DNA from: Dehalococcoidia bacterium
GTDB lineage: Bacteria > Chloroflexota > Dehalococcoidia > GIF9 > AB-539-J10
DNA length: 64,000 bases
Assembly (NCBI GenBank): GCA_009619075.1
Contig: WJOY01000012.1
Span: 8,507-72,506, forward strand
Direction: 5' to 3'
In this document: positions 1 to 62,388 of the stretch, piece after piece
Layout of the letters: every line of letters starts with the position of its first letter
Numbering within the stretch: position 1 is the stretch's first letter
The notes under the pieces: generated by a model
Told to the model about the DNA's origin: nothing
The model's database searches: none
Seen by the model: the letters and a program-made list of their open reading frames with translations, nothing else
Program-made: the position numbers and the translations under genes

Positions 1-503
1 TAGATGCCGGGGATTTGATTGCCTCTCTGGAAGGCTGGACAACCATTGGCCTCGGGAGAACTGAACTCCCCTCCCTTCGCTTTCCCTGGGAGATAAGAAA
101 GAAACATTTCCGCGAGAAGGCTGTGGAAGGCTTCAGAGGGTCGCAGGCCCTGGATGCCACTATATCTGACCTTTCCATTACCTGCAACCCTAAGGATGCC
201 GCCAAAGCTTTGTATATTATGTCTGGCCCAGCTAAAGAAATGAATATGGACATGATCAAGAGCGTGGGCGATTACATCAAGGAAATTGCCCCCAATGCCG
301 TAATCAGAGGTGGCGATTTCCCCGGAGAAAAGCATTTCATTGACGTCACCTTGATATTGTCCCAATTGTCTTTCGTGCCCAAGATAAAAGACTTTTACGA
401 GACGGCCGTCCAATACGGACAGGAACACAAAGGACAGATAGAGGAAACACGGAAGAGAATTCAAGCCTTAGGTGACCTAGGCAAGGAATTGCCTAACTTG
501 TAG
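1..503 (+). CDS. CetZ-like tubulin/FtsZ-superfamily GTPase, C-terminal part of a paralog (5' end lies before the window start)
   Basis: Frame is open from nt 1 (DAGDLIASLEGWTTIG...). It aligns with the T7-loop-to-C-terminus of the 58512..59684 protein (DAGDIIQTLAGWTIIG...LTCDPKNAG...GDYP). The reported Met at nt 15 is a TTG. Confidence 0.6.
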   Translation, partial: DAGDLIASLEGWTTIGLGRTELPSLRFPWEIRKKHFREKAVEGFRGSQALDATISDLSITCNPKDAAKALYIMSGPAKEMNMDMIKSVGDYIKEIAPNAVIRGGDFPGEKHFIDVTLILSQLSFVPKIKDFYETAVQYGQEHKGQIEETRKRIQALGDLGKELPNL

Positions 504-9822: not shown

Positions 9823-11250
9823 CTAACCTTTCCCAGACGACCGCCGCCAAGTCCATTCTTCTAGAGCTAAAGCACCCCATAAAGCCAGTGATGCGGCCAA
9901 AGCTGATAACACGGCAATTAAGGCAGGATGTAGCCATACCCTTTCAGCTTGGACTGTAGGGGCTATCAGTGTTTCTCGCCAGCGGCTATCAAGCCCGTCT
10001 ATATCAAAACCATAAACCTGGGTTAAAGCTCCATCGTAGGTGTCACCTTCCTTGAAGAGGGTTAATAGATTGAGCATTTTATTTTCGCCATAATTGCGGA
10101 GAAGGTATTCCACCAGGCTATAACTCTGAGCATAGGAAAGATAAGCTTTTTCTGGTTCAGCGGAAAACGGACTGCACAAGCTGCGGACAGAAATTAGCTT
10201 ACCCTCAGAGATAGCCTGGCCCAAGTAGGCTCGGAAATAAGGGTCGAGTTCCCCCTCGTTATACATAGCTAAGCCCTCATCAAGCCAGGTGGGCAGTTCG
10301 CCATAGGGACTGAAAGTTGCCTGGTGAACGACTAAATGCGTCAGCTCGTGAACTAAAGCTTTTTTGCCCCAATCAAGCTGGTCTGGCGAAATGCCGATGG
10401 CAATTGTGCCAAACTCAGTAAAAGCGACACCTCCGGTCCACTCCCGGGGGAAAATCATGGCTCCTTGCAGGTCTCCAGCTGAAGCATAGATATATATCCT
10501 AATAGGCTTCGAGATTGCTTCGTCACTGTGCGCCTCACAATGACTGATGGGCTTCAATCTAGCAAGCCCTTGCTCACAAGCATCTATTAATTCCCGAGCA
10601 AAGGAATCATCTCCTTCATACCAGAAAAGGGTTAAATCACTCTTATTTAGGCTTTGCCAATTATAGCGGCCATCATCAAAATGCACTTCAGCTGGAGGAG
10701 TTTCAAGCTTATTTCCAGCAGCATCTCGTATCGTCCACCAATATGATATAGCCGCCCCAGGAGGCAAGCTCGATTTTCTCATATCCCAAACCCAACTAGT
10801 TTCCACTCTGGTTGCCGGAGCAAAGTCAGGCCAACCCTCGCTGGTAACCAGGGCATAATTCATCTTATCCACCTGATAATGAAGGTGCGCATCAACAATA
10901 TCAGTCTCACTCTCAGCTTCGATAGTGAAGACAAGCGCAATGGGAAAATGCACCTCCACGCTGCTATCCAAGACCGCGATGCCGCTATCAGCCTGTTTAT
11001 CTGTCACCCTGAGCCGAAGCTCTGACTCTGAACGCAGTGAAGAGGAAGAGTCCAGCGAAGGGTCTTCAGACGCCGCCCTGAGCATGACGAAGGGTTCTTC
11101 GCGGAGCCTGTCCTGAGCTAGATTCTTCGGTCGCTCCGCTCCCTCAGAATGACAGATAAGATTGCCCAGAATGTCGTTATCAGCTTGGACAAGGGAGGGG
11201 CTCAGTAGTAAGAAAAGAAGTAGAGTTACTAAGCCAATACGCTTAATCAT
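9823..11250 (-). CDS. Secreted/membrane-anchored putative zinc metallopeptidase (HExxH...E) with a repeat-derived in-frame insert
   Basis: 475 aa. Signal peptide (LLLFLLLSPSLVQA), HELTH plus a downstream EGLAMY gluzincin-like motif, and a C-terminal TM helix. Residues about 30-85 are encoded by the dispersed repeat (CHSEGAERPKNLAQDRLREEP...). Confidence 0.55.
   Translation of the reverse strand: MIKRIGLVTLLLFLLLSPSLVQADNDILGNLICHSEGAERPKNLAQDRLREEPFVMLRAASEDPSLDSSSSLRSESELRLRVTDKQADSGIAVLDSSVEVHFPIALVFTIEAESETDIVDAHLHYQVDKMNYALVTSEGWPDFAPATRVETSWVWDMRKSSLPPGAAISYWWTIRDAAGNKLETPPAEVHFDDGRYNWQSLNKSDLTLFWYEGDDSFARELIDACEQGLARLKPISHCEAHSDEAISKPIRIYIYASAGDLQGAMIFPREWTGGVAFTEFGTIAIGISPDQLDWGKKALVHELTHLVVHQATFSPYGELPTWLDEGLAMYNEGELDPYFRAYLGQAISEGKLISVRSLCSPFSAEPEKAYLSYAQSYSLVEYLLRNYGENKMLNLLTLFKEGDTYDGALTQVYGFDIDGLDSRWRETLIAPTVQAERVWLHPALIAVLSALAASLALWGALALEEWTWRRSSGKG
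11002..11155. repeat. Dispersed-repeat copy embedded in-frame within the metallopeptidase CDS
   Basis: TGTCACCCTGAGCCGAAGC...CGAAGGGTCTTC...GATTCTTCGGTCGCTCCGCTCCCTCAGAATGACAG is the same module set as the intergenic copies at 14445, 35791, 52050 and 54575. Confidence 0.6.
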
Positions 11251-12351
11251 TTCTCTTCGCCTACTTTGGAACGAAGATAGGCAGTGATAAATCCATCCAA
11301 ATCTCCATCTAATACAGCCTCAGCATTGGCTACCTCATAGTTAGTGCGATGGTCTTTTACCATTTTATAGGGATGAAGGACATAGCTTCTAATCTGACTC
11401 CCCCACTCAGCCTCGATACGCTTACCCTTAAGTTTGGCCTTTTCTTCCTCTTTCTTCACGCGCTCTAGCTCGAGGAGGCGAGTATAAAGGATTCTCAAGG
11501 CAGTCTCCTTATTCTGATGTTGAGACCTCTGACTCTGACAGGCAGCTACTAACCCAGTAGGCAAGTGAGTTATCCTAACAGCGCTACTTGTCTTCTGCAT
11601 ATGTTGCCCACCAGGGCCACTGGACCTAAAGGTATCTATTCTTAAATCTTCTGGGCTGATTTGGATATCCAGTTCCTTCTTTGCTTCAGGAAGAACTTCT
11701 ACTAAGGCAAAAGAGGTATGCCGAGCATGGTCAGCATCAAAGGGGGAAAGGCGAACTAACCGATGAACTCCATGCTCACATTTAAGATAGCCATAGGCGT
11801 AATCCCCTTTAACTTCCACGATGGCACTTTTGATGCCAGCCTCCTCACCAGGAGAGACATCCAATATTTCAGCTTGATAATCATGCCGCTCTGCCCACTT
11901 GAGGTACATCCGGAGTAACATATTTACCCAATCCTGAGACTCCGTGCCACCAGCGCCACTATGAAGGGCAAGCATGGCATTTCTGGCATCGTAATCACCA
12001 CTGAAAATCAACTGGCTCTCCAATCGCTCAAACTGAGAGGTCATTTTCTTCAGCTCCCGCTGTATCTCCGCCTTAAGGGAATAATCACCTTCCTCGACAG
12101 CTAGAGTTGCCATATCATAAAGGTCAGCGACTTCCCTCTCCAGCTGGCGCCAATTATGGACTAAATTTTTCTTCACCCCGAGCTGACGCATAATGGCTTG
12201 AGCTTTAGCCGAGTAGCGCCAAAAATCAGGACTAGCTGATTCGGCCTCTACTCTGGCAATTTCCTTCTCTTTACCAGGGATGTCAAAGATGCACCATTAT
12301 CTCTGAGACTCGGCGGCGTAAAGCTTCTAAATTTTCCCTTTCTTCCTCCAT
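11247..12351 (-). CDS. prfB: Peptide chain release factor 2, with programmed +1 ribosomal frameshift
   Basis: GGQ motif (SGPGGQHMQKTSSAVRITHLPTG). The upstream 22-codon ORF MEEERENLEALRRRVSEIMVHL ends at CTT TGA C (plus-strand 12282-12288), and the +1 frame continues as DIPGKEKEIARVE...MRQLG into the long ORF. A GGAGG Shine-Dalgarno sits upstream. Confidence 0.85.
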
Positions 12352-44580: not shown

Positions 44581-44633
44581 GCGGCGCACACAAATGAATC
44601 GTATGTGGTAAGCAACAGAATCAGGTTAACAGG

Positions 44634-45797
44634 ATGATAAAGATTAAAAAAGTTGGACTTGGAATAATAGCGGTAATAGTGGTGCTTGTTGGCTTATGGA
44701 TGTACCATGCTCACGGACTCTATGAGAAAAGTTATAGAAGCGAATATCACTACGGAATTAGGATACAACCTGATTCAGTCCTGCACAACATTACATTATT
44801 CGTGCCGTTGCCTGTATTTGAGGAAGAATCGAAAATAGGTGATGAGATTATAGTCGGAAACTATTTTATCATGGGTGGAAAGTTCTCAAAACCAGATGAT
44901 TGGGATTGCCGCATTGTCGAAACAGAGCACGGAAAGATGCTTAAAATCAATGCAGAGAAGATAGCCCCAGAGTTTCATTCTCTTCCTGTGCCTATAGAAG
45001 ATGCCGCCGAGCAAATTGTTATTGCCAAATGGATGTTAAGGATGATGGGATATAAGTATGGGGTAACCATCAGCTTTGCCCCCAAGATTTTGGTTGGACA
45101 TGCCGGTAGTGGTCTTCATATTCACACAAGATTGGTCAGAAATGGGAAGAATATGATGATTGAAGGAAGTGGGTTAAGTAGTATAGCCAAAAAGGCTATT
45201 GCTGGCTATTTAGCGCTGGCTCCCTCTCTGACTGCCTTCGGTAATACTATCCCTACCTCTTATCTGAGATTAGTCTCCCATCAGGAAGCACCAACAAATA
45301 TATGCTGGGGTGATAGAAACCGATCTGTGTTAGTAAGGGTTCCTTTAGGATGGATAAATGTTAAGAATATGGCCAGAGATGCCAATCCACAGGAGAGGAC
45401 AGAATCTTCAGGATTTATTGATAGGCAGACGGTAGAATTTCGCTGTCCTGATGGTTCGGCTAACATTTATCTTCTACTAGCTGGACTAGCTGTGGCCGCT
45501 CGACATGGATTGGAGATGCGAGGTGCGTTGGAAGTGGCTAATAAATTCTATGTGGATATAAACATCTTTTCCTCTGAACATAAGGGGATTCAGGAGAAAC
45601 TGCCTCAGCTACCTGCCTCATGCTGGGAATCAGCCAAAAGTCTTTTGAGAGATCGTGAAATATACCAGAGGAACGGTGTCTTTTCTTCTACGGTAATTGA
45701 TGGGATAGTGAAAAAGCTTAAGAGCTACAACGATAAAGACCTGAGTGAGAAATTATATGGTAGGGAAGATGAGATTAAAAAGTTGCTCGATGAATAG
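44634..45797 (+). CDS. Glutamine synthetase catalytic-domain protein with an N-terminal transmembrane anchor
   Basis: TM helix (LGIIAVIVVLVGLWMY), then GS motifs GSGLHIHTRL, CWGDRNRSVLVRVP and ANIYLLLAGLAVAARHGL. 387 aa. Confidence 0.6.
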   Translation: MIKIKKVGLGIIAVIVVLVGLWMYHAHGLYEKSYRSEYHYGIRIQPDSVLHNITLFVPLPVFEEESKIGDEIIVGNYFIMGGKFSKPDDWDCRIVETEHGKMLKINAEKIAPEFHSLPVPIEDAAEQIVIAKWMLRMMGYKYGVTISFAPKILVGHAGSGLHIHTRLVRNGKNMMIEGSGLSSIAKKAIAGYLALAPSLTAFGNTIPTSYLRLVSHQEAPTNICWGDRNRSVLVRVPLGWINVKNMARDANPQERTESSGFIDRQTVEFRCPDGSANIYLLLAGLAVAARHGLEMRGALEVANKFYVDINIFSSEHKGIQEKLPQLPASCWESAKSLLRDREIYQRNGVFSSTVIDGIVKKLKSYNDKDLSEKLYGREDEIKKLLDE

Positions 45798-45951
45798 CTC
45801 CATTGTTCGTAACATTGAAAGCCATCGCCGTGCAGTATTGAGAGCTACCACAGCGGATGGTAGAATTCCACAAGTCGAAGCGGATTAGACGAACTCTGAG
45901 CTCGTCTATATACCTGTTATCGGCTATTTGTGCGGCTCGTATTAAGGGAAT

Positions 45952-46554
45952 GTGCTCATGTTGGAACACGAACCTGGATATCTGAGGGAAGAAGATCTTG
46001 GATATCTGAGGGAAGAAGATTTTAGATATCTAACGAAACTATTGCTGTATCCTGTAGAATCAAAAGAGGTGGATTATAAGTCTGCCATGAAATTTGAGGA
46101 AGGAAAAGATTTTGCTGACAAGTTGGTAAAGCATATTTTAGCATTTGCAAATTCGGGTGGGGGACACCTGGTTATTGGCTATAAAGAGCAGGCTGATGGT
46201 AGCCTTGCTCCTGACCCAGGTATTACAGATGAAATTGTAGCCTCATATGAAGTTACCAGGTTGTGTCAGTATGTTGAAAAATACTTGGACGGGCAGGATA
46301 GAATTAAAATTATAATTTTTAAGGTAGAATTTGCAGGAATTAAGTATCCTGTAATACGTATCTATCGATTTCAAGAGTGTCCGTTTGTTTGCACTAAAGA
46401 TTGTGCTTCTACAGGAGCTAGGGGAGCTATTCTTAAAGCAGGTCGGGTATATATAAGGACTGAGGGTGCAAGGACACTTGAGGTTGCGATAGTCAAAGCA
46501 TCTCCTGAATGGAGACAATTAATAAGTGAATGTAGAAAGCGTGGTAAGGAGTAG
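45952..46554 (+). CDS. AlbA_2 / Schlafen-like (divergent AAA) domain protein, first gene of the nuclease island
   Basis: LVKHILAFANSGGGHLVIGYKEQADGS matches the AlbA_2 core. The N-terminus contains a 24-bp tandem duplication (GYLREEDL twice). Confidence 0.55.
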   Translation: MLMLEHEPGYLREEDLGYLREEDFRYLTKLLLYPVESKEVDYKSAMKFEEGKDFADKLVKHILAFANSGGGHLVIGYKEQADGSLAPDPGITDEIVASYEVTRLCQYVEKYLDGQDRIKIIIFKVEFAGIKYPVIRIYRFQECPFVCTKDCASTGARGAILKAGRVYIRTEGARTLEVAIVKASPEWRQLISECRKRGKE

Positions 46555-46559
46555 AGGTC

Positions 46560-48017
46560 ATGAAGAGTGTATCAAAGCAAATATTCTTGAATGCTCTCGT
46601 ATGCCCCACATTGGGATGGCTATTGAGGTCTGGGGAAGTTGCTAAGCAAATTACCAAGACAGAACTGACCCTGGGCGAGAGGTTTCGGATAGAGCAGGGA
46701 ATTGAGATTGGAAGGAGGGCAAGAGAACTCTACCCAGGTGGCTTATTAATAGATGACACGGATTTGGTGTCTGCTTCAAGGAAGACAGAAAGGTTGATGA
46801 ATGACCAAAATGTTTCGATAATCTTGGAGGGAGCCTTCCTTATTGACGGGTTTGTAGCTAGAGCAGATATATTGAGACGAAAAGGTAAAGGCTGGCATCT
46901 TGTTGAAGTAAAATCCAGCGTGAACGACAGAGAGGAATTCATAGATGACATGGCGTATACAGCTATGGTTGTTGACCGCTGTGGTTTTAATATCTCTAGT
47001 GTCTCGCTGTTATTAGTCTCCAAAGATTTTCGGTTAGGAATGGAAAACGAAGAACTTTTCGCGCAAATAGACCATACAGATAAAGTTCTGGTTCGAGTTG
47101 AGGAATTCAAACCTTTTTGGCAGCAAATCGAGGAAATAACCAGGACACCGGTAAAGCCAGAGCCCCGACTTCTATTTGAGTGCCGCAAATGCGAACTTTT
47201 CAAAGAGTGTCTAGGTAAAGATATTGATAATCATATATTCGACATTCCACGACTAAGTCAATCCAAATTCGACCAATTAGCAGAATTGGGAATAGTTTGT
47301 ATTAAGGCTATCCCAGATGGCTTTCCCTTGACCGAAAATCAAGCCAGGGTGAGGGAGTGTGTACAAACAAAGAATCCATTCGTTGGAGATAGACTTAAAA
47401 GTGAATTGACATCTATTTCATGGCCTGCTTATTATCTGGATTTCGAAACAGTTATGACAGCAATACCGTTATATCCCGATATCGCGCCTTATACTCAGAT
47501 ACCAACACAATACTCTATACATAAATGTTCTGATGTTGACCTTATCATTGATAACTTAGAATATTTAGCTGACCCAAGTAAGGACTGCAGAAGGGAACTT
47601 ACTGAGAATTTGATCAACAACCTTGGAGAAAATGGTAGTATAATTATTTATTCTAATTTTGAAAAGGCTGTTGTTAACAGCCTCGGGAGATTATATCCTG
47701 ACCTTTCAGAAAGACTGAATTCCTTGGTAGGACGGATGATAGACCTTGGAGCAATCATTGGAAGGAATTATTATCACCCGGATTTTCACGGAAGCACATC
47801 AATAAAGGTAACCCTTCCTGTTCTAGTGCCTGAGATGTCATATGATAATTTGGAAATTGCAGATGGCGATTCGGCTATGGCAGCTTTCGCCTATTTGGCA
47901 CTTGGCAAATATGAAGATGAGAAAGTCGAAGCAATAAAAAGGAACCTTTTGGAATATTGCAAACAAGATACACTAGCTATGGTTAAGTTACATCAACGAT
48001 TGACTGACTATGTATGA
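46560..48017 (+). CDS. DUF2779-like dual nuclease: N-terminal PD-(D/E)xK (Cas4/RecB-like) plus C-terminal DEDD 3'-5' exonuclease-like domain
   Basis: IDGFVARADIL...WHLVEVKSS (D...E-V-K), a Cys cluster (CRKCELFKEC), YYLDFET (Exo I) and YCKQDTLAMVKL (Exo III). 485 aa. Starts 6 nt after the previous gene. Confidence 0.55.
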   Translation: MKSVSKQIFLNALVCPTLGWLLRSGEVAKQITKTELTLGERFRIEQGIEIGRRARELYPGGLLIDDTDLVSASRKTERLMNDQNVSIILEGAFLIDGFVARADILRRKGKGWHLVEVKSSVNDREEFIDDMAYTAMVVDRCGFNISSVSLLLVSKDFRLGMENEELFAQIDHTDKVLVRVEEFKPFWQQIEEITRTPVKPEPRLLFECRKCELFKECLGKDIDNHIFDIPRLSQSKFDQLAELGIVCIKAIPDGFPLTENQARVRECVQTKNPFVGDRLKSELTSISWPAYYLDFETVMTAIPLYPDIAPYTQIPTQYSIHKCSDVDLIIDNLEYLADPSKDCRRELTENLINNLGENGSIIIYSNFEKAVVNSLGRLYPDLSERLNSLVGRMIDLGAIIGRNYYHPDFHGSTSIKVTLPVLVPEMSYDNLEIADGDSAMAAFAYLALGKYEDEKVEAIKRNLLEYCKQDTLAMVKLHQRLTDYV

Positions 48018-48102
48018 TCCTGCAAGTGATAGCAAAATTTATTTGGCTGCTTGCCTTCGGCACTCCGCAAGCATACAAAACAGTGATTAAGGAGAGTAAA
48101 CC

Positions 48103-49383
48103 ATGTCCAGAATAGCCATCCTTAGCGATGCACATCTTTTAATCCAAGCTGAGCGCTTTAGGGACGAGAACTACCGGTCTCCACGGGGAGAAATCTCGCT
48201 CAAAAATTTTAGCCAAGTTATCCGGCAAGTAATAGCGGAGGAACCTGAAGCGGTCATCCTTGCCGGTGATATGTTTGACGAGAGGGAAAAAGGAGGAGAG
48301 TGGATAGCGGATTCAGAAGCAGCCAAATACTGGCCCACTATTCGCAATGAACTAAAGCGCTTAACGGAATGCACTAAATATGGCATTTACGCCCTGAGAG
48401 GAAATCATGACTCTGCACCAGTGTTGAAAGAGCTTCAAGATTACCTGGGAGACAGATTCTGCTTTGTTAGAGATGAAGACAAGGAAATCGGCGACCAGCA
48501 CCTGTATTTCATGGAAACCCGCTATCGGCAGGGCACTTATAGAATCCCCGAGGAAGACCTTCCCAGGGAAGGGGAGTTGCTCATCATGCATGAAACCATA
48601 CCCTGGGGTATGCCTGGACTGGAGGAGAAGGTGTTTCAGGAGTTGGGCAAAAGGTTCTCTCTTCTATTTAACGGTCACATGCATCATTATGCCCAGGGTC
48701 CACTCGATATACCCCATCTTTATTCCCTGCCAGCCTTGATCCCATCGCAGGAGCTGAAAAATAATTTCACCATCAAATACCAATGGCCCGGCGATTTAGA
48801 CCACCCCGAAGTCAAAAACTCCCCCTTTGGCTATCTAATACTGGACGGTCATGAGATTTCATTCCAAAGATATACCCCTATACAGAACATAGTTAATGTT
48901 CGCATCGAAGGGAAAACTCCTCGCGATGTCGTCGCTGGAATCAACGAGGTCTATTCCAGACTGATGGAGCGGGAGGACAGGGATAATCTCTGGATATGGG
49001 TTTCCGCTCAAGGGGTCACTTTCAAGGACACTGTTCAAAAGGAAACCAATAAGTATTCCGAAATAAACACCATGAACATAGAGATCAAAGCGAGGAAAGA
49101 GCCTACCACGCATGCCGAATTAAAGGGACTGGAGAAGATGATAAGCCTGTCCGACCTGGAGGCAAAGGTGTTAACTTCCCTGCCCTGGCCCGATAGAGAT
49201 TTAGCCCAGAAGCTATTCGAGGAAATCTTCACCGCCGACAATTTATCCAGGAGAGCAGATAGCAACCTGGGAAGGTCTCTCTTTCAAAGGCTTCTGGAAT
49301 TATCCGCTCCTCATTACGGCGTGTCACCAGAACATGTAATTGACTTTCTTAAGACAGTAGACCCGCTGTGGAAGAGAAGGTAA
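48103..49383 (+). CDS. Mre11/SbcD-like metallophosphoesterase nuclease
   Basis: Calcineurin-fold motifs ILSDAHL, LAGDMFD, GNHD and NGHMHH. 426 aa. Confidence 0.75.
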   Translation: MSRIAILSDAHLLIQAERFRDENYRSPRGEISLKNFSQVIRQVIAEEPEAVILAGDMFDEREKGGEWIADSEAAKYWPTIRNELKRLTECTKYGIYALRGNHDSAPVLKELQDYLGDRFCFVRDEDKEIGDQHLYFMETRYRQGTYRIPEEDLPREGELLIMHETIPWGMPGLEEKVFQELGKRFSLLFNGHMHHYAQGPLDIPHLYSLPALIPSQELKNNFTIKYQWPGDLDHPEVKNSPFGYLILDGHEISFQRYTPIQNIVNVRIEGKTPRDVVAGINEVYSRLMEREDRDNLWIWVSAQGVTFKDTVQKETNKYSEINTMNIEIKARKEPTTHAELKGLEKMISLSDLEAKVLTSLPWPDRDLAQKLFEEIFTADNLSRRADSNLGRSLFQRLLELSAPHYGVSPEHVIDFLKTVDPLWKRR

Positions 49384-49389
49384 GGGAAA

Positions 49390-51714
49390 ATGAAACTGGC
49401 TAAGGTTGCTTTTGAAAACGTGATGGAACTGGAAGGCTCCATCGCCTTTCCCGAGGGGAGAGCTGTCGTTATCTATGGCGAAAACAAAGCCGGGAAGTCC
49501 AATATAATCCATGCTCTTAGGTATGCTTTCCTCAGCAAAGTAATAAGGCCCAGGAAAAGCCCGGGATACGATGAATTGAAGCTGGTGACAGGAAAAGAGA
49601 TAGCTCCTGCTGAGGGTGTGGGAAGGATACTGATAGAGTTCGAGCATAATGGTGAGCAATTTGAAATCCGCCGAGAAATCGACCGGTATAAGGATAACAA
49701 TAGAATTCTGAAAAAAGAGGCTGGAGGACTTCGAGAGCTTGATTTCAATAAGACCATAGGTAAGGAACTGAAGGCGGGATTGCTTGATGCTCTTTTCGCT
49801 CCGGATAGTGCTATGGGTTTCAATCACCTTAACGAGAAAAATATTGATGCCGTTATTCGGGAGTTATTCAAAGAGATTGGGAATGCCAAGGTGCTGGTTA
49901 AAGATTTCAAGCAGCGCGTGGAGAGACTGACGGAAGAGGCACAGGCAAAAGTCACCGGCATAGAAAGAGATTATAGCTCCTTCATAGGCGAATTGAAGGG
50001 AAATCTGAGAGAGTTACCCCTTGATTTGAGCAGCTTTGAAAGATATCAGCCTGGCAAGACAGCAGAGAAAATAAGCTGTGTCGGCGAGGAGTTGAAAAGG
50101 TACATTGATAGCATCGAGAAAGGCGAGCTCAAGGAATGGCTAAACGAAATGAGAAACCGGGCTAAGGTAGCAGAGGATGTGGAAGGGCTGCTTACTGATA
50201 GCTATCAGCTGACAGCTGACGGCTTTCGTAAGATGAAGGAGATTTCACAGGATGAGGAACGCTTGAGTCTGCTGTTGGCTGAACTTGGGGCGGTGAAGCT
50301 CGGTAGTCCTATGCCACAAGAACCGGGCAGGTTCTATGATGGCGAGTTAGATAATCGTGCCAGAATTTTTTATCAAAAACTTAGAGAGGCACAAACTCGT
50401 TATTCTAACGCCCTGTCTCTGGCTCAAGAGGAGAGAATTGACTTCAAGATTGATAATCCGGCGAGGGTTAGAAGCGACAAGGAGAAAGTGCTGCGGCTGT
50501 TGACCATGGACGTTGCCATCCCGGATGCACCCAGAGTCAAAGTTGACCTGGTCAAAATTGGTTCTGAGAGTGGTGAAGAATCTGTGCATGGACTTGTTCC
50601 CCTAAAACTCATGGACGAGGACCCTGCTTTCACCAAGCTGAGCTCAGAGCCAATTCCCGATGCACCCGAAGAGCACAAGAGGCAATATGCCGAAGCCCTC
50701 GGGAAAAGAATAGAGAAGTTAAGAATCATATGCGAGGATAAGGATAGGGCTGAGAGCTTCTTTAACAATGAGTTTACGCCCAGGCTTACTGACCTCAGCA
50801 GTTATGGCACTACCTTGATGGAAAGGGAAAAGGAGGAGAGAGAAAGGATTTCAAACCTGGCTAAGGACATATATAACAGACTGCTTCTATTCGCCCGGGA
50901 GGAAATTACAGTGCCTGCGTTGGAGTACGAGGGAGATGTAGAGCCATTCACGCTGGCCGTAAGACAAATTCTATCCCGTAAGAAGTCAGACTACACAGGG
51001 GATGTCAATGCCAAGGTGAAGTCTCTGGGCATACAGACAGAGGAGTTTAATACCCATGAGATGGATAGTCTTTTATGTCAACTTGCCGAGATGGAAAAAG
51101 GCATACCGCAATATAGCAGCACCTGGACTGACCTCACGAGGCAGAAAAGAAACGAGTGGGAAAACAACGATGCTGAATATGCCGATTTAGCCTATGTGCC
51201 TGCAGTGGTAGAGGGACTTAATAGAACCCTCGATACCATCTTACTTAACGCTTTTGATGAGCAGGAGGTAATACAGGGAATAAAAGAGATCATAGCTGAG
51301 ATAAATGACAAACTCATAGAAGAAGGGTTAGTAAATTCCTGTATTGAAATGGGCGAAGATAGCCTGCAGCTCAGCAGGACGACTTATAAAGATAGAGAGA
51401 TAACCCACCCCTGCGGAGCAGAAAGGTCCTTCTTTAGCCTGGCGGCACTGACTGCCCTGGCAATATATTTCAGGCTTCCTGTTATCATAGATGAAGCGGC
51501 GAATAACCTTGATAAGAAGCGCTTGCGAGACTTCATCTCGCTGATAAAGGAGTTTGCCGCTAGTTACGATGTTCAGTATATTCTCTCAATAAAAGAAACC
51601 GATGACTTTCCCCTTGATGGCTGGGTTCAGGAATTTGCCGATGACCTGCAAATATACCGCGTAGATTACGACGGCCACAAGAAACATATCAAGCCCATTG
51701 AGCTATATGTCTAG
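49390..51714 (+). CDS. Rad50/SbcC-like SMC-type ATPase lacking a zinc hook
   Basis: Walker A GENKAGKSN, a long coiled coil, signature-like CGAERSFFSLAALTAL, and Walker B PVIIDEAANNLD. No CxxC hook. 774 aa. Starts 7 nt after the SbcD-like gene. Confidence 0.7.
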   Translation: MKLAKVAFENVMELEGSIAFPEGRAVVIYGENKAGKSNIIHALRYAFLSKVIRPRKSPGYDELKLVTGKEIAPAEGVGRILIEFEHNGEQFEIRREIDRYKDNNRILKKEAGGLRELDFNKTIGKELKAGLLDALFAPDSAMGFNHLNEKNIDAVIRELFKEIGNAKVLVKDFKQRVERLTEEAQAKVTGIERDYSSFIGELKGNLRELPLDLSSFERYQPGKTAEKISCVGEELKRYIDSIEKGELKEWLNEMRNRAKVAEDVEGLLTDSYQLTADGFRKMKEISQDEERLSLLLAELGAVKLGSPMPQEPGRFYDGELDNRARIFYQKLREAQTRYSNALSLAQEERIDFKIDNPARVRSDKEKVLRLLTMDVAIPDAPRVKVDLVKIGSESGEESVHGLVPLKLMDEDPAFTKLSSEPIPDAPEEHKRQYAEALGKRIEKLRIICEDKDRAESFFNNEFTPRLTDLSSYGTTLMEREKEERERISNLAKDIYNRLLLFAREEITVPALEYEGDVEPFTLAVRQILSRKKSDYTGDVNAKVKSLGIQTEEFNTHEMDSLLCQLAEMEKGIPQYSSTWTDLTRQKRNEWENNDAEYADLAYVPAVVEGLNRTLDTILLNAFDEQEVIQGIKEIIAEINDKLIEEGLVNSCIEMGEDSLQLSRTTYKDREITHPCGAERSFFSLAALTALAIYFRLPVIIDEAANNLDKKRLRDFISLIKEFAASYDVQYILSIKETDDFPLDGWVQEFADDLQIYRVDYDGHKKHIKPIELYV

Positions 51715-57576: not shown

Positions 57577-58455
57577 ATGATAACTCAGATTTTGCTGGCA
57601 GTTGTTGTAATACTCCTGGTCATATTGATTTTCCTTGTTATCAAAGGGAGGAGTGTCAAGCCAAGAGATATTGAAAATGCCGTATCAAGCACCTGGACGA
57701 AGCTGGGCCTGGATGAAAAGATAGGTAAGCTGGCAATTCACGCCCAGGATATTAGAGATAGCCACAGGTCAATTGAACAAATGCTCCGAGTGCCTATGGA
57801 GCGAGCGGCGCTCGGTGAAATGAGTTTGGAAACAATCCTTTCAGACCAGCTCCCTCCAGATATGTTTGGTATCAGGAAGATGATTCTCGACGGGAAAATT
57901 CCCGATGCACATATTAGGTCAACCGTGGGGCTTATTTGCATAGATTCTAAATTCCCCTTAGATAACTATAGAAAAATGGCAGAGGTTGAAGATTCCAAAG
58001 AAAAGGAGGACTTCAAAAACGATTTCCGCAAAGATGTCCGAAGTCACCTTAACAAAATAGCTGAAGATTACGTGTGTCCAGAGAAGGGCTCAGCAGAGTT
58101 TGCTTTCGCTTACATCCCCTCTGAGGCTGTTTATTATTTCTTAGTAAACGAGGAATTCGAAATGTTGCGGGACTACACTAAAAGGGGAATTCAGGTTGTA
58201 TCCCCGTTGACGCTTTCCCACAAGATTGAGCTTATCAAAGCTGGCGTTCATGCCAAAAAGCTTTCCGAAGAGGCGGAAAGTGTGAGAAAAGACCTTAATG
58301 TAATTTCCCAAAGGTTTAACGAAATTGACGAGCTATGGCGGGTATTTTACAACACACATTTAAGAAATGCCGGGGATAGGGCAGAGGAATTGGATACAGC
58401 CTATAGGAAACTAAGGGAAGAATTTGATAAGATTTCAAGAATGTCGAAGGAATAA
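57577..58455 (+). CDS. rmuC: DNA recombination protein RmuC-family
   Basis: N-terminal TM helix, then LICIDSKFPLDNYRKM and FAFAYIPSEAVYY, which match RmuC core blocks. Confidence 0.65.
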   Translation: MITQILLAVVVILLVILIFLVIKGRSVKPRDIENAVSSTWTKLGLDEKIGKLAIHAQDIRDSHRSIEQMLRVPMERAALGEMSLETILSDQLPPDMFGIRKMILDGKIPDAHIRSTVGLICIDSKFPLDNYRKMAEVEDSKEKEDFKNDFRKDVRSHLNKIAEDYVCPEKGSAEFAFAYIPSEAVYYFLVNEEFEMLRDYTKRGIQVVSPLTLSHKIELIKAGVHAKKLSEEAESVRKDLNVISQRFNEIDELWRVFYNTHLRNAGDRAEELDTAYRKLREEFDKISRMSKE

Positions 58456-58511
58456 CAACTCTAAAACAAGGCTATTGACATTGCTGTATCGGGCTGTTTA
58501 CAATAAGCCAT

Positions 58512-59684
58512 ATGAAATTATTAGTTATAGGTCTAGGTCAATGTGGCGGCAGAATTGCCGATAGGTTCGCTCGGCTAAATAAGAGGGCGCGTGCTCTGCG
58601 GAAAATCAATATCATTGCCGATGCCTTTGCTGTTAACACAGATGTTGCTGATTTAAGTGGATTACGCACTATCAAATCTGATTACAAACACAGAATTCTT
58701 ATCGGGGGGCAACGGACCAATGGTCATGGAGTAGGTAAGGTAAGTGAACTTGGCGCCGAGATAGCGAGGGAAGATACTGATAAGATCATAGATGCTATAA
58801 GAAGGTCAGAGCAGTTCTATGAGACAGACGCCTTCTTGTTGGTTGCTGCTGCTGCCGGTGGCACTGGTTCTGGATCAATAGCAGTGCTAACGCAGTATTT
58901 GAAACAGCGCTATATAGGAAAGCCGGTCTACAATGTTATCGTTTTGCCATTTAGGCAAGAAGAAACAACAGAATCAAGAGCTGTTTACAACACGGCTATG
59001 TGCCTCAAGTCTACCTACTTAGTGGCTGATGCGATAATTCTTATTGACAACCAAAGGTATGTCAAAAAAGATTCTCCGGCCGGAAACAACCTGGCGGTGA
59101 TTAATGCCCGAGTAGTTGAACCATTTTACAATTTGCTTTGCGCTGGTGAAGAGAGGAACAAAAAATACATTGGGGCAAGAACGCTTGACGCTGGAGACAT
59201 AATACAGACTCTGGCAGGATGGACAATAATTGGCGAAGGTAAATCGCCAATCCCACGAAGGATACCCCTATTTGGACCAAAACGTGATTTCAGAGCCAAG
59301 ATGGATGAAACCAGCAAAGCAGCTCACGCTATGGATCAAGCCCTAGGTGAGTTATCGCTCACATGCGATCCTAAAAATGCTGGGAGGGCTTTATACCTTG
59401 TCACCGCACCGCCCAAAGAAATGCATATGGAGATAATCAAGGAACTTGGGGACAATTTAAGCACTGTGGCTCCAGATGCTTTAATACGGAGCGGTGATTA
59501 CCCTAGACAGAAAGGTTCGCTGTATGTCACTGTAATCCTATCTGAAATTAGCAGTGTCAGGAAAATCACGAACTACTTTACCAGAGCAATTGACTTAATT
59601 TCTGTTATCAAAGCTAAGCGTGGAGTAGAGTACTCAAACAGAAAACTCGCAGAAACCTTCGCTGATATCCCTCTATTACTATAA
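58512..59684 (+). CDS. CetZ-like tubulin/FtsZ-superfamily GTPase (full length)
   Basis: IGLGQCGGRIADRF (tubulin/CetZ-type G-box), AAAGGTGSGS (tubulin-type GGGTGSG, not FtsZ GGGTGTG), T7-loop TLDAGDI, C-terminal GDYP. 390 aa. The blocks NGHGVGKVSELGAEIAREDTDKI and DAFLLVA...PVYNVIVLP resemble haloarchaeal CetZ. Confidence 0.75.
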   Translation: MKLLVIGLGQCGGRIADRFARLNKRARALRKINIIADAFAVNTDVADLSGLRTIKSDYKHRILIGGQRTNGHGVGKVSELGAEIAREDTDKIIDAIRRSEQFYETDAFLLVAAAAGGTGSGSIAVLTQYLKQRYIGKPVYNVIVLPFRQEETTESRAVYNTAMCLKSTYLVADAIILIDNQRYVKKDSPAGNNLAVINARVVEPFYNLLCAGEERNKKYIGARTLDAGDIIQTLAGWTIIGEGKSPIPRRIPLFGPKRDFRAKMDETSKAAHAMDQALGELSLTCDPKNAGRALYLVTAPPKEMHMEIIKELGDNLSTVAPDALIRSGDYPRQKGSLYVTVILSEISSVRKITNYFTRAIDLISVIKAKRGVEYSNRKLAETFADIPLLL

Positions 59685-59787: not shown

Positions 59788-60171
59788 TTACTTTCTAGCT
59801 TTAGTAAAGACTGCCCATGTCCGCTCAATGGTCTCATTGCGGGCTTCCCTGGCTTTTCGTTCAGCCTCATCACGGGTTCTTAATATCTGAGCCACTCTTC
59901 CTTCATAAGCCTTTCTAGCCTGGGCTATGTTTTCCTCACAAGCCTTTCTAGCTTGCTCTACAGCCTCATTATAGGCCTTATCTGCCTGTCGTTCCTGCCC
60001 CTTATAGGCTCCTTCTAGTTGGCGTTCAGCTTCTATGTAGGCTGCATAAGCTGCCGCAGCTCGCTGTTGAGTTTCATCAAGGAAGCCAACAACTTGCTCC
60101 GCTTTCTTAGGGACCTTCTTGGCTTCCTCTTCTTCCTTCCCCGCAACAAAGACTTTCTCTGCATCTGGCAT
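59788..60171 (-). CDS. Small charged alpha-helical/coiled-coil protein (A/E/K/R-rich)
   Basis: 127 aa with a repetitive AYxxAxEQARKAxEE composition. Lies downstream of, and co-oriented with, the 550-aa repeat protein. Confidence 0.4.
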   Translation of the reverse strand: MPDAEKVFVAGKEEEEAKKVPKKAEQVVGFLDETQQRAAAAYAAYIEAERQLEGAYKGQERQADKAYNEAVEQARKACEENIAQARKAYEGRVAQILRTRDEAERKAREARNETIERTWAVFTKARK

Positions 60172-60275: not shown

Positions 60276-61928
60276 CTAGCCTTGCTCCACTTCATCATTC
60301 TCGGTAGCTTCTTCCTCAGCATGTTCAGCTTTATGAGCGGCATACATTTGAGCCAGGAAATCCAACCTTGCTTGAATTTCCCTTCTAGACTCTTTTGGCT
60401 CCCTCTTTTCTTCTGCAACAGCTTCAGCCTTACTTAAAGGCTCCTCAATCCCCTTGCTTACCTTTTCAGCTCCACCCATCGCTTGCTCAAATACTCGTAT
60501 TGATGCCTTTGCCGCCTTTCTAGCTGATTTAGTTGTTTCCTCAGTCCTATTGATCGCCTCTTCGAACGCCCTTACCGCTGTTATAACGGCCTCCTTGGCT
60601 TCCCTTACCGCTCTCTCAGTAACTTCCCTGGCTACTTGTGTTGCTTCCTCAGCGGCCTTCATGGCCGCCTGGCCTATCTCCTCAGCTCTGGCTATGGCCT
60701 CTTGGGAGGCTTTCTTTGCCTCCTCGGCAGTTTCCTTAGCCGCTTGATCTGTCTCCTCAAGCCTACCTACAGCTTCCTGGGATGCTTTTCTTGATCCCTC
60801 GGCATCCCCCATGACTGCCTGGCCTATCTCCTCAGCTCTGGCTATGGCCTCTTGAGAGGCTTTCTTTGCCTCCTCGGCAGCCTCCTTAGCCGCTTGACCT
60901 ATCCCTTCAACCCTGCTTATAGCTTCTTGGGATGAGTTTCTTGATTCCTCAGCAGCCTCCACGGCCACCTGGTTCATCTCCTCAGCTCTGGCTATAGCCT
61001 CTTGGGAAGCCTTCATTGATGCTTCAGCAGATTCCTTGACCCATCTGACCGATGCCTCAGTTCTGCTTATAGCTTTCTGAGATGCTTTTATCACTGTTTT
61101 AGCCTCTTTCTTGGTTGTTTTGCTTATTTCACTGGCCCTGCTTATTACTTCCTCAAATGCCCTTGCGGACTCTTCGGTAGACTCCTTAGCCGATATGCTC
61201 ACTTTATTGGCTCTGCTTATTGCCTCCTCGAATGCCCTGGCAGACTCCTCGGCAGACTTCGTGGCTGCTTGGCTTGTCCTTTCAGCTTTGCTTACTGCTT
61301 CCTGTGATGCTTTCTGCGCTTCCTTGGCAGCTTTGGCGGCTGCCTTGCCTCCCTCCTCAGCTCTGGTTATAGCTTCTCGGGAGGCCCACATCGCTTCCTG
61401 AGCGGTTCCCATGACCGCCTGGCCTACTTCCTTAGCTCTGGTTATAGCCTCTTGGGAGACTTTCGTCGCCTCCTGAGCGGTTTCCATGGCCGCCTGGCCT
61501 ATCTCCTCAGTTCTGGCTATAGCCTCTTGGGAGGCTTTCATCGATGCTTCAGCAGCCTCCCTGGCCCATTTGACCAATGCCTCAGTTCTGCTCACCGCTT
61601 CCTTAAATTCCTTTGCTGATGACTCAGCAGAGTCCGTGACTGATTTGATCGATGCCTCAGCCTTGCTTATCGCCTCCTGTGATGCTTTTATCGATGCTTC
61701 AGTAACCTCCTTGGATGCTTGGCTTATCCTTTCAGCTCTGCTTACTGCTTCCTGTGATGCTCTCTTTGCCTCCTCAGCAGCCTTCATGGCTGCCAGGCTT
61801 ATCTCCTCAACCCTGCTTATAGCTTCTTGAGATGCCCTCTTTGATTCCTCAGCAGCCTGCCTGGCCGCTTGACTTAGCTTCTCAGCTCTTGCTACTGCCT
61901 GCTCAAATGTCGCAACACTACTTTTCAT
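60276..61928 (-). CDS. Tandem-repeat alpha-helical protein (~22 copies of a 22-residue, 2x11-mer amphipathic repeat)
   Basis: The consensus ASQEAIaRaEEIGQAAMkAAEEAKk is repeated along 550 aa. The DNA contains near-identical internal duplications (for example 60650-60730 versus 60800-60880, and 61380-61460 versus 61470-61540). Convergent with the CetZ-like gene. Confidence 0.6.
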   Translation of the reverse strand: MKSSVATFEQAVARAEKLSQAARQAAEESKRASQEAISRVEEISLAAMKAAEEAKRASQEAVSRAERISQASKEVTEASIKASQEAISKAEASIKSVTDSAESSAKEFKEAVSRTEALVKWAREAAEASMKASQEAIARTEEIGQAAMETAQEATKVSQEAITRAKEVGQAVMGTAQEAMWASREAITRAEEGGKAAAKAAKEAQKASQEAVSKAERTSQAATKSAEESARAFEEAISRANKVSISAKESTEESARAFEEVISRASEISKTTKKEAKTVIKASQKAISRTEASVRWVKESAEASMKASQEAIARAEEMNQVAVEAAEESRNSSQEAISRVEGIGQAAKEAAEEAKKASQEAIARAEEIGQAVMGDAEGSRKASQEAVGRLEETDQAAKETAEEAKKASQEAIARAEEIGQAAMKAAEEATQVAREVTERAVREAKEAVITAVRAFEEAINRTEETTKSARKAAKASIRVFEQAMGGAEKVSKGIEEPLSKAEAVAEEKREPKESRREIQARLDFLAQMYAAHKAEHAEEEATENDEVEQG

Positions 61929-62388
61929 ATTCCCTGAGGACTTTTGGAAAACCTCGCTTGGCTCCGCAAAGTCCAGCGGTTTTCCTTACCCCTTATATTT
62001 CTTATTTTAATAGGAGTTACTAAAATTTTCAATGCCTAGCCCGTCAGGGGCAGGGTTATTAAATCTCCCTTGGCAACTTCCCGTAGGTGTTCTAGCGCTA
62101 GAATGTCCACGTTATCGAACCAGGCAAAGGCAAAAAGCCACCTCAAGTAAAGGACTTCAAAAAATCTTCACAGAGGCGGTGAGTATGAAGGGCCAACAGC
62201 CCTTAAGCAGCAAGGTTGATAGCTACCATAGTAAATGTTAGAGTTTGCTAGACCAAAGCGGATTAGATGAACTGTGGGTTCGTATACACTGCTGTTGTCT
62301 GCCATTTTCAATGAGATGTGAGTTAGATGGATATTGATCGTAGTATAAAGATGAGGTTGGTGTTTGAGGATCAAAAGAAGCCATATTT

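Follow-up and report, generated by a model that had tools for sequence, protein, structure and literature searches.

The window examined here, a stretch of 64,000 nucleotides from a Dehalococcoidia bacterium, contains two cetZ-like genes, which we call paralogs A and B. Paralog A begins with an ATG codon and is encoded in full, followed by two convergent partner genes. Paralog B is represented by its 3′ portion at the left edge. The features considered are as follows.

3..503, + strand: cetZ-like gene, paralog B, C-terminal 166 amino acids from the T7 loop to the stop codon (CetZ_C match)
58475..58504, + strand: promoter-like site of the sigma-70 type, TTGACA-18-TACAAT (11/12; putative function, from a consensus match only)
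58512..59684, + strand: cetZ-like gene, paralog A, 390 amino acids (open reading frame, Pfam and PDB matches)
58530..58550, + strand: T1 nucleotide-binding loop GLGQCGG, residues 7-13 (translation)
58854..58874, + strand: T4 tubulin signature AGGTGSG, residues 115-121 (translation)
59187..59198, + strand: T7 (synergy) loop with acidic residues D226...D229 (alignment to 4b46)
59664..59681, + strand: C-terminal peptide D385-IPLLL-390, a candidate docking motif similar to the FtsZ C-terminal peptide (homolog counts)
59788..60171, - strand: small partner gene, 127 amino acids (ortholog in genome L004, family alignment, AF2 model)
60276..61928, - strand: large partner gene, 550 amino acids (repeat autocorrelation, ortholog in L004)
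62004..62032, - strand: promoter-like site TTGAAA-17-TAAAAT, upstream of the large/small partner pair (consensus match only)

The protein encoded by paralog A is composed of a tubulin/FtsZ GTPase domain, a CetZ_C domain, a linker, and the terminal DIPLLL peptide. A first-pass annotation of this DNA had assigned it to the tubulin/FtsZ superfamily as a CetZ-type protein, as opposed to an FtsZ, and the comparisons that follow support this. The Pfam Tubulin model (PF00091) matches residues 3-183 with 116.1 bits (cut-off 33, E 3e-33) and CetZ_C (PF21011) scores 57.6 bits (cut-off 21.6), well above what chance would give. No Pfam match to FtsZ_C was found, and the curated FtsZ equivalog TIGR00065 gives 58.9 bits against a cut-off of 295.2. 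In a PDB sequence search, the best hit is CetZ1 (4b46, E 8.6e-44, full length), along with CetZ2 (4b45, E 1.2e-25) and another CetZ (3zid, E 1.3e-15); FtsZ chains appear at E 6e-10 or weaker and are matched in the N-terminal domain only. A fold search with the predicted structure likewise places 4b46, 4b45, and 3zid on top, with a TM score of 0.88 to first-ranked 4b46 and about 0.75-0.80 to FtsZ, the C-terminal domain of the model being of moderate confidence only (pLDDT 50-60). With more distant tubulins, the match is confined to a portion of the GTPase domain, at most residues 78-234; BtubA/B, gamma-tubulin, and Asgard tubulins score about 27-30 bits, and Odin-type tubulin-like proteins reach about 38 bits. 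Thousands of database entries for this family are named "cell division protein FtsZ", and some JGI records say CetZ. The former labels are automatic and, by the curated FtsZ model, wrong.

The active-site loops can be read directly from the translation, as the annotation had stated for GLGQCGG, GGTGSG, the T7 loop, and GDYP (residues 328-331). The longer blocks that it quoted, NGHGVGKVSELGAEIAREDTDKI and DAFLLVAAAAGGTGSGSIAVLTQYLKQRY..PVYNVIVLP, are also all present. Glycines G7, G9, and G12 of the T1 loop are at least 90% conserved within the A1 group of relatives, and G116, G119, and S120 of T4 are invariant throughout the bacterial clade. The AGGTGSG sequence fits the PROSITE tubulin signature [SAG]GGTG[SA]G, whereas the FtsZ counterpart is GGGTGTG. 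The T7 loop reads LDAGD (residues 225-229), and its D229, which is invariant in the A2 and A4 groups and at least 90% conserved in A1, aligns with E218 of CetZ1, where the E218A substitution creates a GTPase-dead dominant mutant (PMC13556191).

These features are shared with archaeal CetZ proteins, exemplified by CetZ1 and CetZ2 of Haloferax volcanii (4B46 and 4B45) and CetZ of Methanosaeta thermophila (3ZID), which have the same Tubulin plus CetZ_C architecture, a GQxGG-type T1, a GGTGSG T4, an acidic T7 residue at the position of CetZ1 E218, and GDYP. PMC9856176 (Fig. 2) singles out residues of the GTP pocket that are specific to CetZ, and our comparison of that pocket covered GQxGG in T1 and GGTGSG in T4. 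The likeness is nevertheless looser than the "strikingly close" resemblance to haloarchaeal CetZ1 that the first-pass annotation had proposed: paralog A shows 33% identity to CetZ1 and 28% to CetZ2, resides in a bacterial host, and falls in a separate bacterial clade. With bacterial FtsZ it shares the superfamily fold, the acidic T7 residues, and a flexible linker that leads into a short, conserved D-(I/V)-P-x-(F/L)-L peptide at the C-terminus, but it differs in T4 and in the curated models, and it is only 26% identical over 136 amino acids to the FtsZ of a Dehalococcoidales genome.

The C-terminal tail departs from the archaeal pattern. It had been proposed that the protein lacks the linker and tail of FtsZ, and this proved incorrect. 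In the model, the globular core extends to about residue 370; residues 371-390 form a linker predicted with low confidence (pLDDT <50), which finishes in a short helix at 385-389. A (D/E)-I-P-x-L-L peptide closes the protein in 226/226 close homologs, and it occurs in 16/23 bacterial-clade representatives versus 3/39 archaeal-clade representatives. Comparable FtsZ tails are DIPAFL in E. coli and DVPSFL in Dehalococcoidales. The tail resembles the FtsZ C-terminal peptide over six residues. By comparison with this hydrophobic ending, the tails of sampled archaeal relatives are mostly acidic and lack (D/E)IPxLL, and those of CetZ1 and CetZ2 have been described as negatively charged (PMC9856176).

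Downstream of paralog A lie the two partner genes, which both encode Ala/Glu-rich proteins built largely of long helices; such a convergent gene pair is conserved downstream of the cetZ-like gene in 54/72 loci. The small partner has a disordered N-terminus and then a single helix of about 104 residues (residues 23-126 in the AF2 model, pLDDT 96-98), with Ala-Tyr recurring every 11 residues and a conserved C-terminal W-x-(I/V)-F-T-K-A-R-K. Invariant positions in the family alignment are L31, A41, Y42, A44, A48, Y56, Y67, and W119. Its ortholog in L004 is 49% identical, and a homolog search returned 41 matches, among which the sole taxon label is Chloroflexota. The large partner repeats a 25-residue unit in tandem about 17-20 times (autocorrelation 0.41 at lag 25) and has an acidic tail, with a composition of 24% Ala and 18% Glu. 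It carries conserved FExAVARAE and RLDFLAxMY motifs at its N- and C-termini, respectively, has a 40% identical ortholog in L004 (E 3e-101), and is itself convergent with and downstream of a cetZ-like copy in the same 54 of 72 evaluable loci. With the partners as queries, PDB sequence, NCBIfam, and Pfam searches (the last with 25 family members at E<=1) gave noise only, and neither protein has a transmembrane anchor. The partner genes are found mostly with a single paralog group, and neither lies beside paralog B, so the family does not require them. One small-partner homolog is labeled "phage shock protein A", a reading that lacks support: PspA is missing from the Pfam and NCBIfam matches, and the model is one continuous helix, not a hairpin.

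The bacterial setting described in the first-pass annotation is confirmed by curated models. DnaG, RF2 (with a CTTTGAC frameshift motif), RecO, RecR, DnaX, LigA, Pth, and the C-terminal domain of RpoD are all encoded in the window, in which tRNA and Rfam scans for taxonomic markers found nothing. The G+C content at 58-60 kb is 0.44, within the 0.39-0.50 range of the window. When species-representative genomes were scanned with an alignment of 7 sequences, at least 509 stretches matched the family; nearly all of the best 80 come from Dehalococcoidia MAGs, one of them a complete 1.03-Mb chromosome. Upstream contexts vary among relatives and are all bacterial (FtsY, YjeF, GAPDH, and DnaX). Paralog A is therefore a CetZ-like GTPase of the tubulin/FtsZ superfamily that is native to a Dehalococcoidia bacterium, and neither an archaeal nor a chimeric origin of the contig holds.

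Paralog A lies outside FtsZ and FtsZl-1. In phylogenetic trees, which were neighbor-joining only, with sparse taxon labels and no labeled Thermococcales sequences, the bacterial proteins form their own clade, with a bootstrap of 71 in one tree and 84-88 when two FtsZ outgroups are used. The archaeal side is only weakly supported as monophyletic (36-45%), and the basal members of the non-bacterial clade are Nitrososphaerales archaea. Paralog A lies outside the clade of CetZ1 and CetZ2. The canonical CetZ node has been bounded by Thermococcales CetZ (PMC9856176) and described as a "supported node" (PMC9871819, Fig. 6), and paralog A appears to fall outside it. The bacterial clade is large and lineage-wide, and it appears to be either the sister group of archaeal CetZ-type proteins or a branch nested within them. 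The horizontal acquisition suggested earlier is plausible, but it must be ancient because the bacterial proteins form their own clade with several deep paralog groups and have native G+C content. One deep subclade that bears an insertion (P0147/P0303) sits in a context rich in IS elements and resolvases, and the P0303 region is also rich in group II introns.

The bacterial clade is duplicated into several paralog groups, and the window holds two retained types, as had been recognized. The paralog B fragment (frame 3, stop codon at 501-503) starts at its own T7 loop, DAGDL, and ends in KELPNL. It scores 46.1 bits against CetZ_C (cut-off 21.6). Its identity to paralog A is 44% over 136 amino acids (E 7e-40), close to the earlier estimate of about 40% over 165. 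Paralog B is 77% identical to P0121 and belongs to that paralog group, and its chromosomal position adjoining PHO4/PhoU is the same in genome L089.

CetZ, the third branch of the tubulin superfamily and one known for cell-shape control, has been described as "specific to the archaea" (PMC9856176). A large, ancient, multi-paralog bacterial branch suggests that CetZ crossed domains and was long kept. The existence of such proteins is not new, contrary to what the first-pass annotation had implied: Santana-Molina et al. 2023 include "Chloroflexota-Dehalococcoidia" in one sentence among "other CetZ-like proteins" (PMC9871819, section 7), Pfam CetZ_C matches them, and some JGI records name CetZ. 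What was not known is their anatomy. The tail, the partner genes, and the coexistence with FtsA and FtsZ are additions to the first-pass annotation. The same study reported that non-canonical CetZ-like groups are often flanked by uncharacterized coiled-coil genes (PMC9871819). These groups (Nitrososphaerales, Altiarchaeota, and "Halo.Tub") differ from ours in having archaeal hosts, mostly no (D/E)IPxLL tail, and neighbors with no detectable homology to the two partner families; the Nitrososphaerales protein P0159 is 33% identical to paralog A, a distance like that of CetZ1. Archaeal cetZ genes differ further in that purine, cofactor, and sugar metabolism genes have been reported around them.

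Coexistence with the canonical division proteins is evident in at least one relative, genome L081, where the gene order is mraZ-rsmH-ftsA-ftsZ-cetZ-like and where FtsA (391 bits) and FtsZ (413.9 bits) are both above cut-off. This cluster contains no peptidoglycan genes, and cultured Dehalococcoidia lack peptidoglycan. The lineage also includes Dehalococcoides, a workhorse of bioremediation.

Taken together, these observations make it likely that the Dehalococcoidia proteins form a CetZ-like GTPase filament that is tethered to the membrane through its tail, aided by the helical partners, accessory to FtsZ, and used to shape the envelope. We infer from sequence that bacterial members polymerize, hydrolyze GTP, and bind FtsA and the partner proteins. 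Specifically, the protein would bind GTP and polymerize head-to-tail into dynamic protofilaments, in which, as in CetZ1 and FtsZ, each GTPase site would be completed by the T7 loop of the neighboring subunit, here through Asp229. By way of its flexible linker and terminal peptide, the filament might dock to a membrane adaptor, which would most likely be FtsA because the peptide mimics that of FtsZ. The two partners beside paralog A could serve as filament-associated scaffolds or cross-linkers. We take ZapB and EzrA-type FtsZ-associated coiled coils to be a functional analogy only: in both cases a small all-helical coiled coil and a large helical-repeat protein are encoded with a tubulin-like filament on which they are presumed to act, but the hendecad Ala-Tyr core and the 25-residue repeats of the partners are unlike either, and a transmembrane anchor is missing. 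As members of no described family, the partner proteins are candidates for new filament-associated factors.

Such a system, anciently acquired and then duplicated in Dehalococcoidia, would be accessory to FtsZ and would most plausibly organize or shape the cell envelope. Shaping of peptidoglycan-free cells would parallel the shape role of CetZ1 in wall-less haloarchaea, and bacterial CetZ-like proteins bear on how shape arises in wall-less, S-layer-bounded cells of either domain. The combination of a CetZ core, an FtsZ-style peptide, and coexisting FtsA and FtsZ might also be viewed as a natural experiment on filament-membrane coupling.

Leads in D. mccartyi permit a bolder proposal. In addition to FtsZ (DET0343), this organism has two further "FtsZ" genes, DET0589 and DET0636 (PMC5102406). 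In strain BTF08, the "FtsZ/Tubulin GTPase" btf_0551 and the nearby hypothetical protein btf_0548 fall as cells change from discs to barrels (PMC8163811). A profile search of Dehalococcoidaceae returned MAG proteins only; btf_0551, which has been seen at the protein level, would probably be a homolog of this family. Perhaps, then, the bacterial CetZ-type protein is a shape cytoskeleton that was rewired to FtsA by an FtsZ-type peptide, uses the two helical partners, and sets the disc shape of peptidoglycan-free S-layer cells, with btf_0551/btf_0595 (DET0589/DET0636) and btf_0548, which change with the disc-to-barrel shift, constituting this system. This extended version is tentative, and we consider it possible rather than probable.

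A different role, as a dedicated division paralog, would make the protein a second (and third) FtsZ-like ring component that works alongside FtsA and FtsZ in the divisome of wall-less Dehalococcoidia, instead of a cytoskeleton for shape or envelope. The FtsZ-like tail, the position directly beside ftsA-ftsZ in L081, and the "cell division protein FtsZ" names would fit this role, as would the joint drop of the D. mccartyi tubulin-like protein and "FtsZ" in a morphologically altered co-culture (PMC8163811). However, a cetZ-like gene adjoins ftsZ in 1/86 loci, the names are automatic and fall below the curated cut-off, and division is not the role of CetZ1 and CetZ2, the closest characterized relatives (PMC9856176, PMC13556191). 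We therefore regard a division role as rather unlikely.

It is very improbable that the gene encodes a TubZ/PhuZ-like tubulin for segregating mobile-element DNA or a member of the membrane-remodeling FtsZl-1 family. Pfam Tubulin_2 (PF13809), which we take to be the FtsZl-1 family, scores 17.7 bits over 30 residues only, below its 27-bit cut-off, and there is no TubZ or PhuZ chain among the best 60 of 123 PDB sequence matches at E<=0.01. A TubR-like gene and centromere repeats are missing, the gene sits among housekeeping genes, and its chromosomal synteny is conserved, although Santana-Molina et al. put TubZ near CetZ-like sequences (PMC9871819) and the P0303 subclade occupies an element-rich region. 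Equally hard to credit is the view that the protein is a degenerate, non-polymerizing leftover from an old transfer and plays no cytoskeletal part. Function in bacteria is predicted from sequence, but all nucleotide-binding and T7 residues are kept across thousands of clusters, several paralogs persist, conservation extends to the tail and the partner genes, and the probable D. mccartyi homolog is detected as a protein. That the gene is archaeal and entered a bacterial bin through chimeric assembly or contamination, or was acquired very recently from a methanogen or haloarchaeon, might have been expected from a literature in which the family is overwhelmingly archaeal and from the strong CetZ1 similarity proposed earlier, but this reading is already refuted: the gene recurs in Dehalococcoidia genomes of at least 80 species-level units, with varied bacterial neighbors and on a closed chromosome. 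It also conflicts with the bacterial genes on both sides of paralog A, the G+C content, the 33% identity to CetZ1, and a clade with deep paralogs.

Two minor observations concern the region just upstream of paralog A. The RmuC-family membrane protein encoded there (57577-58455) was considered as a functional partner and set aside: it is conserved only in relatives of about 95% identity, is directly upstream in 0/80 loci, and is replaced elsewhere by FtsY, YjeF, or another cetZ copy; moreover, the cetZ-like gene has its own promoter-like site. Because this site ends 7 nucleotides ahead of the ATG and no Shine-Dalgarno sequence is present, the transcript of paralog A is possibly leaderless.

Two cetZ-like genes, paralogs A and B, two partner genes convergent with paralog A, and their immediate neighbors are located in the window as follows.

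3-503, + strand: paralog B fragment (C-terminal 166 aa) in frame 3, starting at its own T7 loop (DAGDL), stop at 501-503
532-750, - strand: HicB-like antitoxin gene (Pfam 49 bits), directly downstream of paralog B
57577-58455, + strand: RmuC-family gene immediately upstream of paralog A (Pfam 117 bits); its product has a hydrophobic N-terminal anchor
58475-58511 region, + strand: near-consensus promoter-like site TTGACA-18-TACAAT, ending 7 nt before the paralog A ATG
58512-59684, + strand: paralog A, an ATG-initiated ORF of 390 aa in the ORF listing, with translated blocks GLGQCGG (residues 7-13), AGGTGSG (115-121), LDAGD (225-229), and GDYP (328-331)
59788-60171, - strand: small partner, 127 aa
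60276-61928, - strand: large partner, 550 aa

Every sequence block quoted in the first-pass annotation is found in the 390-aa translation of paralog A, to which paralog B is 44% identical across 136 aa (E 7e-40). Paralog A matches the Pfam families Tubulin (PF00091; 116 bits) and CetZ_C (PF21011; 57.6 bits versus a cut-off of 21.6), and the paralog B fragment likewise matches CetZ_C (46.1 bits). The NCBI curated FtsZ equivalog is not reached by paralog A (58.9 versus 295.2 bits). Among all solved structures, its top sequence match is Haloferax volcanii CetZ1 (PDB 4b46; E 8.6e-44, full length), followed by CetZ2 (4b45; 1.2e-25) and Methanosaeta CetZ (3zid; 1.3e-15), and FtsZ and tubulin structures align with the N-terminal domain only, with E-values no better than 6e-10. 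In a fold search with an AlphaFold2 model of paralog A, the three CetZ structures again rank first, above all FtsZ entries (TM 0.88 to 4b46). This model has a mean pLDDT of 70.5, with values of 80-93 in the GTPase domain and only 50-60 in the C-terminal domain, which is modeled with moderate confidence only.

Sequence comparison indicates that the Dehalococcoidia proteins form an old, separate bacterial lineage of the CetZ-type group. When 1.8 billion representative proteins were searched exhaustively, only 268 clusters were recovered at E≤1e-10. We computed a neighbor-joining tree of 67 full-length representatives together with the paralogs of the window and of loci from related genomes, CetZ1, CetZ2, and FtsZ. 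One clade unites the paralog A protein with all Dehalococcoidia sequences (bootstrap 71% in a first analysis, and 84-88% when the alignment was changed and two FtsZ outgroups were used), and the other holds CetZ1 and CetZ2, with Nitrososphaerales archaea at its base. Monophyly of the archaeal side is weakly supported (36-45%), and therefore this tree, made by neighbor joining only and with few taxon-labeled sequences, does not separate a sister from a nested position of the bacterial clade. Paralog A shares 33% identity with CetZ1 and with a Nitrososphaerales protein and 28% with CetZ2; with the genuine FtsZ from a Dehalococcoidales genome it shares 26% over 136 aa. Because of the identities to CetZ1 and CetZ2, and with a separate bacterial clade, the "striking" closeness to haloarchaeal CetZ1 that had been noted earlier was overstated.

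That bacteria have CetZ-like proteins is already on record. CetZ has been described as "specific to the archaea", with confident identification only in Euryarchaeota (Brown & Duggin 2023, PMC9856176), and Chloroflexota-Dehalococcoidia have been listed among CetZ-like proteins, with no function, tail, or context given (Santana-Molina et al. 2023, PMC9871819). Furthermore, Pfam CetZ_C hits the bacterial proteins themselves, and CetZ is the name used in a few JGI entries. The first-pass observation is confirmed, and its interpretation as a CetZ-type protein in a bacterial host largely holds, but it was wrong about the tail and about how close the protein is to CetZ1, and it claimed more novelty than is warranted. 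In the searchable literature, we found no account of the scale of this clade, its FtsZ-type tail, its conserved partner genes, or its coexistence or adjacency with ftsA-ftsZ.

Paralog A had been described as lacking both the linker and the C-terminal tail of FtsZ. In the AlphaFold2 model, however, its globular core stops near residue 370, and beyond it come a linker modeled at low confidence and a short helix at the very end. The final six residues, DIPLLL, are an instance of a conserved [D/E/G/S]-I-P-x-L-L peptide that is present in 226/226 close homologs and in 16/23 representatives of the bacterial clade; in the archaeal clade, where tails are mostly acidic, only 3/39 representatives have it. 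The peptide resembles the C-terminal peptide of Escherichia coli FtsZ (DIPAFLRK, checked against the PDB) and the tail of a Dehalococcoidales FtsZ (DVPSFLRK).

Neither partner gene matches a Pfam or NCBIfam family, and neither protein has a transmembrane segment. An ortholog pair (49% identity for the small partner, 40% for the large) occupies the same position beside a 72%-identical CetZ-like protein in a different upstream context. Where the cetZ ortholog is at least 69% identical, the large partner is present at 25/25 loci and the small partner at 23/25. A similarity-independent test (a convergent gene within 1.5 kb, ≥350 aa, ≥30% Ala+Glu) places a large-partner-type gene next to a cetZ-like copy at 54 of 72 evaluable loci. 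The large partner has 25-residue repeats, conserved end motifs (FExAVARAE and RLDFLAxMY), and an acidic tail. The small partner is modeled as a single continuous helix of ~104 residues (pLDDT 96-98) with Ala-Tyr at 11-residue spacing, and Leu, Ala, Tyr, and Trp positions are invariant across its family alignment. A search recovered only 41 small-partner homologs, most of them unnamed, the sole taxon label being Chloroflexota. The Dehalococcoidia system joins a CetZ-type core to coupling features of bacterial style and to partner proteins of its own.

A related Dehalococcoidales locus (L081) has the gene order mraZ-rsmH-ftsA-ftsZ-cetZ-like-nrdR, with the division cluster at 1811-7986. Its FtsA (391 bits) and FtsZ (414 bits) both exceed curated cut-offs, and therefore the CetZ-like protein occurs alongside canonical FtsA/FtsZ and is not a replacement. 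This cluster contains no mur, ftsW, ftsI, or ftsQ gene, and the 86-bp gap between rsmH and ftsA holds no peptidoglycan gene, a reduction that is consistent with a peptidoglycan-free lineage.

The T1 and T4 loops of paralog A are intact, and its T7 residue Asp229 aligns with CetZ1 Glu218, whose mutation yields GTPase-dead, hyperstable filaments (PMC13556191); this conservation extends across the whole clade. As for every functional statement on this system, we infer that the CetZ-like protein would polymerize head-to-tail in a GTP-dependent manner. The terminal peptide would tether the filament to the membrane, most likely through FtsA, and the two long-helix partners would scaffold or cross-link filaments. 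The system as a whole would be accessory to FtsZ and shape or organize the envelope. The main rival explanation, less probable but still plausible, is that the CetZ-like protein has a role in division. In D. mccartyi 195, FtsZ DET0343 is paired with FtsA DET0342, and there are further "FtsZ" genes, DET0589 and DET0636 (PMC5102406). In strain BTF08, disc-shaped cells of the pure culture have abundant amounts of an "FtsZ/Tubulin GTPase" (btf_0551), an "FtsZ" (btf_0595), and a hypothetical protein encoded near the tubulin gene (btf_0548), and in the barrel-shaped cells of the co-culture these proteins are at lower levels or missing (PMC8163811). Locus-tag offsets suggest that btf_0551 and btf_0595 correspond to DET0589 and DET0636, respectively. 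These candidate family members provide a lead that fits either a shape or a division role. While the existence of bacterial CetZ-like proteins is unlikely to astonish a specialist, their anatomy offers testable hypotheses on cytoskeleton-membrane coupling and on shape control of wall-less cells in both domains.

The bacterial host is supported by curated models for DnaG (bacterial type, 436 bits), RF2, RecO, RecR, DnaX, LigA, Pth, enolase, and type I GAPDH in the window; RpoD passes a curated C-terminal domain model. The RF2 gene includes two features.

11247-12191, - strand: prfB, a 314-aa ORF without the RF2 N-terminus, covering model positions 53-353
12282-12288, - strand: frameshift motif CTTTGAC, just upstream of the prfB body, where the programmed +1 site is expected

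Homologs of paralog A number 5,744 clusters at E≤1e-10, and a Dehalococcoidaceae profile search gives at least 7,392 at E≤1e-20. All relatives listed have the Tubulin+CetZ_C architecture, and every organism-named one is Chloroflexota/Dehalococcoidia. When one genome per species was scanned, at least 509 related stretches were detected. Essentially all of the best 80 come from MAGs labeled Dehalococcoidia, Dehalococcoidales, or Dehalococcoidaceae, among them a closed chromosome of 1.03 Mb. Two "Deltaproteobacteria" loci are mislabeled, because they share 84-86% DNA identity with a Dehalococcoidales locus; one contig is labeled "Syntrophaceae". Genes upstream of the cetZ-like gene vary among genomes (RmuC, FtsY, YjeF, GAPDH) and are bacterial in every case. 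A chimeric or contaminant contig is excluded by these neighbors, by a G+C near paralog A (0.44) inside the window range, and by recurrence across Dehalococcoidia genomes, including the closed chromosome. Most public records name the protein "cell division protein FtsZ" or "cell division GTPase FtsZ" despite its failing the curated FtsZ model, a systematic misannotation over thousands of entries.

Other genomes carry two or three cetZ-like copies within 7 kb, typically as cetZ(p1)-cetZ(A)-[small, large, opposite strand]-cetZ(p3). At related locus L005 (8719-15806), three paralogs 38-66% identical to paralog A surround both partner genes, between GAPDH and dnaX-recR-recO. In the window, those housekeeping genes are found at 22.5-35 kb, and therefore the region has been rearranged. 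Paralog B represents a fourth group (77% identical to representative homolog P0121) in a conserved position adjoining PHO4-PhoU-AMMECR1-radical SAM, with no coiled-coil partner genes. The HicB-like gene marks a variable insertion site, because locus L089 has other genes there. In L089 (3-7491), genes upstream of the paralog B ortholog encode three large proteins of 1116, 526, and 527 aa, which have no more than faint TIG/Ig-like matches and may be cell-surface or S-layer proteins. At loci L087/L088 (10001-12305), a cetZ-like gene of a deep subclade with an insertion (418 aa, tail LLPDL) precedes a co-directional gene of 324-327 aa without a Pfam family. The surrounding region, on a 1.25-Mb contig, has many IS66/IS605 elements and resolvases as well as Uma2 and a group II intron RT.

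The promoter-like site, by consensus match only, suggests an independent and possibly leaderless paralog A transcript; no Shine-Dalgarno sequence precedes the ATG. RmuC is probably without a functional link to the cetZ-like gene, because their adjacency is kept only in relatives ~95% identical. Elsewhere in the window, a REP-like hairpin (GGTCGGGGACAAGCCCCGACC) occurs in three intergenic copies (1065-1101, 5521-5557, and 5583-5619) that produce spurious ORFs (translation "...VGDKPRPY..."). A 218-aa protein without a Pfam family (8181-8837, - strand) has an N-terminal hydrophobic segment and then a Glu/Leu-rich coiled-coil-like region. A low-G+C block at 44600-51714 (+ strand; G+C 0.39-0.43 across 42-48 kb) could be a defense or SbcCD-like island and includes two genes.

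46560-48017, + strand: Cas4-like PD-(D/E)xK nuclease
49390-51714, + strand: SMC-like ATPase of 774 aa with weak LmuB/PbeC/GajA similarity
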